IMG/VR virus record: IMGVR_UViG_3300018080_000099
Location: 1 to 64,000 of that record
From: a virus
Length of the DNA stretch: 64,000 bases
Reading direction: 5' to 3' (one strand)
Program-made: the position numbers and the translations under genes
Shown: positions 14,231 to 14,927 of the stretch, one piece after another
How the letters are laid out: every line of letters starts with the position of its first letter
How positions within the stretch are numbered: position 1 is the stretch's first letter
The notes under the pieces: generated by a model
Databases searched by the model: none
What the model saw: the letters and a program-made list of their open reading frames with translations, nothing else
Told to the model about the DNA's origin: nothing

Positions 14231-14927
14231 ATGTTACCCATAACCCACTTTAAAGATGCACACGAGTTCTTGAGTAACTTCCCACGGGCACTTGTGGTGT
14301 TCGAGGGACTGGCATACCCCCACCGTTGAACATGCGTACCAAGCCGCCAAAACTCTTGACATCCGAGAGCGAGTCGCCATACAGTACGCTTCAACGGCTG
14401 GGGAGGCCAAGAAGATGGGCCAAAACGTCCAGCTTCGTCAAGATTGGGATGCCGTCAAAGATGATGTGATGCTTGGATTACTTCGCCAGAAGTTCACCAA
14501 GCTAAATCATTACGGCCCACTTCTCCTTGAGACACACCCACGGGAACTGATTGAGGGGAACTATTGGCATGATAACTACTGGGGCGATTGCAAGTGTCCT
14601 AAATGCATTCATGTCCCCGGTTCAAATAAACTTGGACATTTACTTGAACAGGTAAGGACGGAACTAATGAGCCGCTTAGCACTATACCAACAGGCGATTA
14701 ACAAGATTGATGATTACTTTGAGTACAGGTATCTGGCGGTAAGTCAAGAAGAAAACAAGAACTTTGTCATGCGAGTGCTTGACAAACTCACAGCCAACCT
14801 TGCCGTTGAAGCCCGGAAAGAAGAACAAAAGAAAAAGGGATGTCCATACGGACCTGAACTTGAAGCACAATGTACACCAACACGGGCGGCGGATTGCAGT
14901 CAAAAACACCTTTGCGGAAAGGATTGA
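14231..14927 (+). pseudogene. NADAR-domain (YbiA/DUF1768) protein interrupted by a 1-nt insertion in a C5 run (14317-14321); +1 frameshift or sequencing error
   Basis: N-part MLPITHFKDAHEFLSNFPRALVVFEGLAYP (frame 2, stops at 14327) continues in frame 0 as TVEHAYQAAK...NYWGDCKCP...KLGHLLEQVR matching YbiA F..FSNF...W.PT.EH.FQA.KF ... YWGDG...LG.LL. Confidence 0.6.

Follow-up and report, generated by a model that had tools for sequence, protein, structure and literature searches.

A single extra C splits a YbiA-type NADAR gene in the NAD+ salvage cluster of a jumbo phage and has probably inactivated it

The 64,000-nt stretch of DNA analysed here (the window), from an uncultivated jumbo phage, contains a NADAR gene whose reading frame breaks at a run of five C residues, and the question raised by this locus is whether the break reflects an error of assembly, a programmed +1 frameshift or a recently inactivated gene. 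The preliminary description of the locus, which put forward these three options, held that one NADAR gene is split by a single extra C in the C5 run, and we find that it had the coordinates, the frames and the product of ~230 aa right (Table 1). Direct reading of the sequence from ATG 14231 gives 32 codons, MLPITHFKDAHEFLSNFPRALVVFEGLAYPHR, in what we call frame A, before the TGA at 14327-14329. The CCCCC run occupies exactly 14317-14321, with the flanks TA-CCCCC-ACC, and is read in frame A as TAC CCC CAC CGT TGA. Frame B, the +1 frame, has no stop between 14274 and the TGA at 14925-14927 and reads ...HTPTVEHAYQAAK.... The uninterrupted reading frame of a NADAR gene (PF08719) is thus not found here, frame A being closed at its stop and the remainder lying in the +1 frame.

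Removal of one C gives a 231-aa product with the junction ...GLAYPTVEHAYQAAK..., which aligns without a gap to the subfamily consensus EGxxYPTVEHAYQAAKT. Because the consensus YPTVEH is gapless at this point, we place the join between the frame-A Tyr codon and the frame-B Thr codon. A two-base deletion elsewhere was considered and rejected as less parsimonious, given the same gapless join. Ahead of T31, the sole possible start in frame B is TTG 14292, which has no Shine-Dalgarno (SD) sequence. The 170-aa product (P0001) that is the only one reported by public gene callers begins further on, at an internal ATG, and this call is probably explained by the SD-like GGGAGG that precedes it. On the other side, 2 bases separate the TGA of the upstream gene (14226-14228) from the NADAR ATG; so short a gap suggests that the upstream 301-aa gene and NADAR are translationally coupled and form one transcription unit.

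Table 1. Positions in the window of the split NADAR gene, its sequence elements and its neighbours
Feature	Position	Strand	Remarks
NAD-dependent DNA ligase	2046-3995		
NAD synthase	8167-9006		
Cytidylyltransferase-like, NMN/NaMN-adenylyltransferase-type protein	9003-9653		
Nudix hydrolase	9658-10239		
Promoter-like site	13277-13305		Upstream of the 301-aa gene
Upstream 301-aa gene, function unknown	13323-14228	+	Stop 2 nt before the NADAR ATG
Frame-A N-terminal NADAR fragment	14231-14329	+	32 codons and TGA; first 30 codons homologous to NADAR N-termini; FLSNF motif
CCCCC run, site of the one-base excess	14317-14321	+	TAC CCC CAC in frame A; CCC-C is also a +1-slippery motif
Frame-B NADAR remainder, T31-D231 and TGA	14322-14927	+	NADAR core with E33, K40, W72, K76, E108, D114 and W117; ~85-aa helical, Cys-rich C-terminal extension
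Inverted repeat CCGTTGAA..GCGTAC / GTACGC TTCAACGG	14323-14396	+	Begins 2 nt past the C-run; not above chance
Premature TGA, frame A	14327-14329	+	Two codons past the C-run
SD-like GGGAGG	14401-14406	+	8 nt ahead of ATG 14415; derived from codons for the conserved G-E-A in GxAKKxG
170-aa ORF of public gene callers (P0001)	14415-14927	+	Starts at internal ATG (M62); without E33 and K40
Nicotinate phosphoribosyltransferase (NAPRTase)	15511-16683		

Profile comparisons show that both pieces are NADAR sequence. We built an HMM from 46 homologues only, leaving out the query's own protein. Adding the 30 frame-A residues lifts the score against this model from 171.7 to 210.6 bits (+38.9), whereas shuffled N-termini (n = 500) give 174.5 ± 1.8 bits and reach 183.7 at most, so the frame-A match is beyond chance; the 170-aa form reaches 123.5 bits, as compared with the 210.6 bits of the full-length product. 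Searched in all six frames, the window returned just two significant matches, which meet on the model, frame A covering positions 4-30 (E = 2.4e-6) and frame B positions 26-146 (E = 3e-53), and a second NADAR copy is absent from the 64,000 nt searched in this way. Against the Pfam NADAR profile, the 211-aa ORF that starts at TTG 14292 scores 71.1 bits over positions 37-162, and the repaired protein 79.6 bits over positions 9-162 of 163, well past the curated PF08719 cut-off of 35.1 bits. The repaired protein also matches phrog_1017 (119.6 bits) and aligns in one piece, from residue 1 or 2 to ~150, with 458 phage records (tblastn). In an alignment of 47 sequences it keeps all of the invariant (22/22) and near-invariant (21/21) subfamily columns, with the invariant F7, S15 and N16 lying upstream of the shift, and the N-terminal piece carries ~1.3 bits per residue compared with ~1.5 for the remainder.

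E33 and K40, within TVEHAYQAAK, are invariant in the 47 sequences and align to the catalytic motif of E. coli YbiA and of Phytophthora nicotianae NADAR (PnNADAR), for which the ADP-ribose-binding and catalytic residues have been identified (PMC11543638). In order, PnNADAR E43, K50, W89, R93, E125, D130 and W133 align to E33, K40, W72, K76, E108, D114 and W117 of the repaired protein, and every ligand-contacting residue named in that study (PMC11543638) maps downstream of the shift. The catalytic Glu/Lys pair, E43/K50 in PnNADAR, is equivalent to E88/K95 of the E. coli C7 NADAR, in which it is essential (PMC11543638). E108, in LIEGN, is invariant in the subfamily and aligns to the Glu of LVEH in YbiA and of YEAS in PnNADAR. 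A Glu in the last strand characterises the YbiA family in the sense of de Souza and Aravind, while the DarT1-linked NADARs have Asp and the T4 NADARs His at this position (summarised and quoted in PMC11543638 and PMC11125620). Judged by this residue, the protein is on the YbiA side and not of the DarT1-linked or T4 type, as the earlier assignment to a YbiA-like type had it.

The AlphaFold model of the repaired protein has a mean pLDDT of 87.4, with values of 95-99 over residues 1-80, and shows the helical core and two small flanking sheets of the YbiA fold. Residues 1-31 are modelled as a short strand, a helix (9-14) and strands 19-24 and 27-31 that lead into the catalytic helix (32-38); the 30 N-terminal residues encoded in frame A thus supply integral strands and a helix, at pLDDT 95-98. 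Foldseek matches the model to YbiA (2b3w; E = 1.4e-10, TM 0.75) and to PnNADAR (8bau; E = 4e-7, TM 0.63), and the sequence alignment to E. coli YbiA has E = 7e-18. Intact, the protein would be a YbiA-fold ADP-ribosyl glycohydrolase, presumably of the kind that phages use on ADP-ribosylated guanine in DNA.

Two further parts of the protein deserve description. The subfamily has an insert, WHDNYWGxCxCxKC (window 14576-14605, residues ~113-125), in which C120, C122, C125 and H113 are invariant or near-invariant; the insert is missing from E. coli YbiA and from the NADAR of phage Bas32, and its Cys and His residues may form a metal-binding site. Past the NADAR domain lies a C-terminal extension of ~85 aa (window 14666-14927), predicted to form a helical hairpin followed by a four-Cys tail and modelled at pLDDT 72-88, dropping to <50. 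Part of this extension matches phrog_23713 (function unknown), and most homologues stop at about residue 150.

NADARs strip ADP-ribose from guanine and so antagonise DarT1 (PMC11543638, PMC11125620), and phage NADARs do this during infection (PMC11825919); the activity on which the preliminary description drew is therefore well documented. The closest characterised relative of the present protein is AdfN of Bas32 (Escherichia phage IrisVonRoten, bas32_0066; T5-like), to which it is 46% identical over residues 2-151 and which was grouped with archaeal NADARs, not with the housekeeping YbiA (PMC11825919). Bas32 AdfN neutralises DarT1 and restores the growth of DarTG1-sensitive phage, and it is guanine-specific, being inactive on thymidine-linked ADP-ribose (PMC11825919). 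Both are phage-encoded YbiA-type domains without an N-terminal extension, and with Glu108 in place of the His of the T4-type signature the present protein resembles the Bas32 type. However, the Bas32 gene is intact and encodes 149 aa, without the CxCxxC insert or the 85-aa C-terminal extension, whereas the present gene is frameshifted. E. coli YbiA (35% identity) and PnNADAR (25%) have the fold, the Glu-x6-Lys motif, the last-strand Glu and HD..W in common with the present protein; YbiA, though, is a housekeeping N-glycosidase of riboflavin intermediates, and the Cys-rich insert, the helical extension and the frameshift set the present protein apart from it. The gene is that of an orphan phage NADAR, lying on a phage-like contig of ~264 kb with no ART domain among the neighbours scanned, which cover part of the window.

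The theme of NAD and ADP-ribose metabolism that the preliminary description saw in this locus is real, since five NAD-related genes are present in the window (Table 1), and as they lie on both sides of it the NADAR gene sits inside an NAD+ salvage cluster. These genes make up a seemingly complete Preiss-Handler-type route to NAD+ (NAPRTase, the cytidylyltransferase-like adenylyltransferase and NAD synthase) together with a Nudix hydrolase and an NAD-dependent DNA ligase, and the set may be a means of replenishing NAD+ as a phage counter-defence. Any specific link between the present gene and a DarT system is putative, and in a context of NAD salvage the substrate could be something else: in nature the enzyme may act on ADP-ribosylated DNA, like the Bas32 protein, or on a metabolite derived from NAD or ADP-ribose. 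The same region encodes, at 10224-13220, a 998-aa protein that matches SPFH/Band 7, a vault repeat and, at 85 bits, the shoulder domain of the major vault protein of eukaryotes, which is unusual for a phage.

Comparison with orthologous phage genomes, proposed earlier as a way of finding an intact ORF, did not provide one. Megablast and blastn searches with 13296-15300 gave no match in 50,697 phage records, and hence no close sequenced relative; IMG/VR contains no relative of the upstream 301-aa protein. Its relatives elsewhere, at 41-45% identity, are encoded on other jumbo-phage contigs of 12-224 kb, where the genes downstream are for DHFR and thymidylate synthase, or for a Clp-like ATPase, and no NADAR is found at this position. 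The closest NADAR, P0002 (60% identity), lies in an unrelated phage context. Given that relatives of the 301-aa gene carry other genes downstream, NADAR is, on this comparison of gene order, an accessory gene here, with no known orthologue. On one of the related jumbo-phage contigs (L061; JGI 3300014208, Ga0172379_10000183), a gene with an Acb2/Tad1 hairpin domain, of the anti-CBASS/anti-Thoeris sponge family, lies at 9020-9403, within a few kb of the gene homologous to the 301-aa neighbour.

In considering whether the fifth C is in the genome, we note that exactly the same 170-aa protein is called on seven contigs, four of which (L056-L059) we read: ENA ERZ27256796 (263,805 bp), ERZ27256773 and ERZ27256783, and JGI 3300017963. 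C5 and its flanks are identical in the consensus contigs of all four assemblies, which come from four samples and two pipelines, and the contigs are 100% identical to the window save for one base. This SNP falls outside the gene, 8 nt short of the end of a contig, and carries no information here. In essence the four samples contain a single clone, and they may stem from one study. Because C5 is the same in four assemblies, an assembly error is an unlikely source of it as judged from these consensus sequences, with which a systematic error or a minor C4 allele would nonetheless be compatible. We accordingly give very little credence to the view that the true genome has C4 and an intact gene, even though homopolymers are classic sites of indel errors and the gene is otherwise perfect. 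Contig names beginning k141 presumably point to MEGAHIT assembly of short reads, and short reads seldom give indels in runs of five bases. Every database copy of the product (JGI, Logan and ENA) is the 170-aa call P0001, and the repaired 231-aa sequence is absent from ~15 billion proteins, a similarity search of which found no relative between 60% and 100% identity. An exact match to the DNA around the run, with three to seven Cs allowed, was looked for in the collection metagenome_contigs and not found, a result without bearing on C4 alleles since these contigs are evidently absent from it. Furthermore, homopolymers of five bases or longer number 111 for A and 65 for T in the window (176 in total), yet a crude ORF map of it shows ~90% ORF coverage, with the ORFs tightly abutting. 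A mixed population or reversible switch, in which C4 is the on state and C5 the off state and on-variants are favoured where the host has a DNA-ADP-ribosylating defence, also seems to us unlikely: five bases are short for a contingency tract, and neither a C4 contig (among the four) nor an intact protein (among the ~15 billion) is on record. Such a switch would make sense of a lesion in a homopolymer, which the loss of one base would revert, and of the fact that phage NADARs matter only on hosts with DarT1-type systems (PMC11825919), from which fluctuating selection is expected.

If +1 frameshifting were programmed at C5, it would occur on the CCC-C at 14318-14321, a documented slippery motif that, placed at the second codon, gave ~1% shifting in E. 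coli, a level that rose eight-fold when m1G37 was missing (PMC4519876). As at prfB-type and CCC-C sites, the P-site codon can pair fully again after a +1 step, and a stop in the 0 frame is close by, two codons on. Moreover, the gene is without other defect, an inverted repeat starts 2 nt downstream, and in-frame CCC-C is rare in the long genes of this phage (4/57 CCC codons). The A site holds neither a stop nor a rare codon; in the 0 frame it is occupied by CAC, the codon preferred for His (58% of 185 His codons counted in 26 long ORFs of the window), and a pause there is not to be expected. An SD-like GAGGGA does sit upstream of the shift codon CCC, but at 9 nt, where the spacing of the element in prfB is 3 nt. 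The downstream region has an MFE of -28.5 kcal/mol (z = -0.75) and 42/200 shuffles fold as well or better, and a tRNA scan of the 64,000-nt window found no tRNA gene, including any candidate for four-base decoding. Nor is the site conserved: 56 of 57 family loci are contiguous in one frame across the shift position, where both residue and codon vary (Pro, Ser, Asn, Lys), and no orthologue shows conservation of it. Transcriptional slippage was likewise rejected as a means of correction, a C5 run being too short for it. We regard a programmed shift as very unlikely, and by analogy expect at most non-programmed slippage here, roughly at the 1% level (PMC4519876). More doubtful still is the idea that C5 is a lineage-specific recoding site, where a +1 slip of tRNA-Pro on CCC-C sets NADAR output or raises it conditionally, for example in response to host translation or to the m1G37 or EF-P status of tRNA-Pro, during infection or NAD depletion. 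Were this true, a jumbo phage that rebuilds NAD+ would be tying expression of an ADP-ribose-removing enzyme to translational state, and a frameshift that ribosomes bypassed with high efficiency would count among the rare +1 recoding sites of phages, a reading for which the slippery motif is the support so far. We are equally sceptical that a functional N-terminally truncated product is made, whether it begins at TTG 14292 (211 aa) or at ATG 14415 (170 aa). The 211-aa form would keep all known ADP-ribose contacts (PMC11543638), but its TTG has no SD. The 170-aa form has a strong SD, GGGAGG, at 8 nt, and a promoter-like site at 14356-14385, but the SD-like string derives from conserved G-E-A codons, promoter-like sites are not above chance (5 found, 3.2 expected), and the form is without E33 and K40, the equivalents of which are essential in the E. 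coli C7 NADAR (PMC11543638). It is also conceivable that the helical C-terminal extension has an independent function. Against activity of either form, the missing 30 residues comprise the invariant F7, S15 and N16 and a confidently modelled sheet, and the loss of just 15 C-terminal residues inactivates RB69 AdfN (PMC11825919); fold and conservation together suggest that an N-truncated product would have lost its activity. The promoter-like site just mentioned, TTGACA-18-TACAGT, lies ahead of both the SD and ATG 14415.

Thus, of the three options raised in the preliminary description, recent inactivation fits best, with assembly error made unlikely by the C5 in four assemblies and a programmed +1 shift lacking features beyond CCC-C. 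Our conclusion is that the locus is likely to be an accessory NADAR gene that has been recently inactivated or nearly silenced. An ancestral C4 (TAC CCC ACC, Tyr-Pro-Thr) would have become C5 by insertion of one C, most likely through replication slippage in the short C-run. Ribosomes that initiate at ATG 14231, in probable coupling with translation of the upstream gene, would then read CCC CAC CGT into the stop and release a 32-residue peptide; with termination after 32 codons, the NADAR core would not be made as a whole protein. Two residual products can be envisaged. One is a trace of the 231-aa protein from spontaneous +1 slippage of tRNA-Pro, since CCC-C is slippery at ~1% in E. coli and some full-length protein is therefore expected; for an enzyme, this amount could be enough. 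Initiation at ATG 14415, with the internal SD, could give the other, a 170-aa fragment without the catalytic Glu33 and Lys40. We think it probable that the insertion is recent, because the gene has a single lesion, its conserved residues are intact and the N-terminal piece is conserved like the rest; a single lesion fits continued selection as well as recency.

The inactivation that we favour has a published precedent in adfN (gene 30.3) of phage RB69, also a phage NADAR disabled by a single inserted base that leads to a premature stop (PMC11825919). RB69 is the only DarTG1-sensitive phage among the T-even phages tested, and it has this one-base insertion in adfN (PMC11825919). The two cases differ in extent and in type. 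In RB69 a T is inserted at 411 and the last 15 residues are lost, whereas here the C falls at codon 30-31 and nearly the whole domain goes untranslated; RB69 AdfN is of T4 type, with His for the last-strand Glu, whereas the present protein has Glu108. Among 55 IMG/VR homologues we observed one other split NADAR gene, at 2998-3431 of L049 (IMGVR_UViG_3300020045_020708), which is frameshifted elsewhere, at about residue 59-60 (locus 3160-3175), leaving ORFs at 2998-3177 and 3228-3431. The split reflects either a natural pseudogene, the second of its kind, or a fault in the assembly.

For annotation, it follows that the 170-aa "NADAR" of the databases represents part of a longer, 231-aa gene that has been disrupted, to be flagged as a frameshifted pseudogene and not as an active counter-defence gene. 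With the C5 allele, a further phage NADAR gene has in all likelihood been lost to the insertion of one base, the third natural case of disruption by frameshift after RB69 adfN and L049, if the latter is not a fault of assembly. With the RB69 precedent published, the loss of a phage NADAR by a one-base frameshift is most likely an ordinary event, and the present case fits the gain and loss of accessory NADARs as host defences change. Of greater interest than the frameshift is the set of NAD+ salvage genes that surrounds it.
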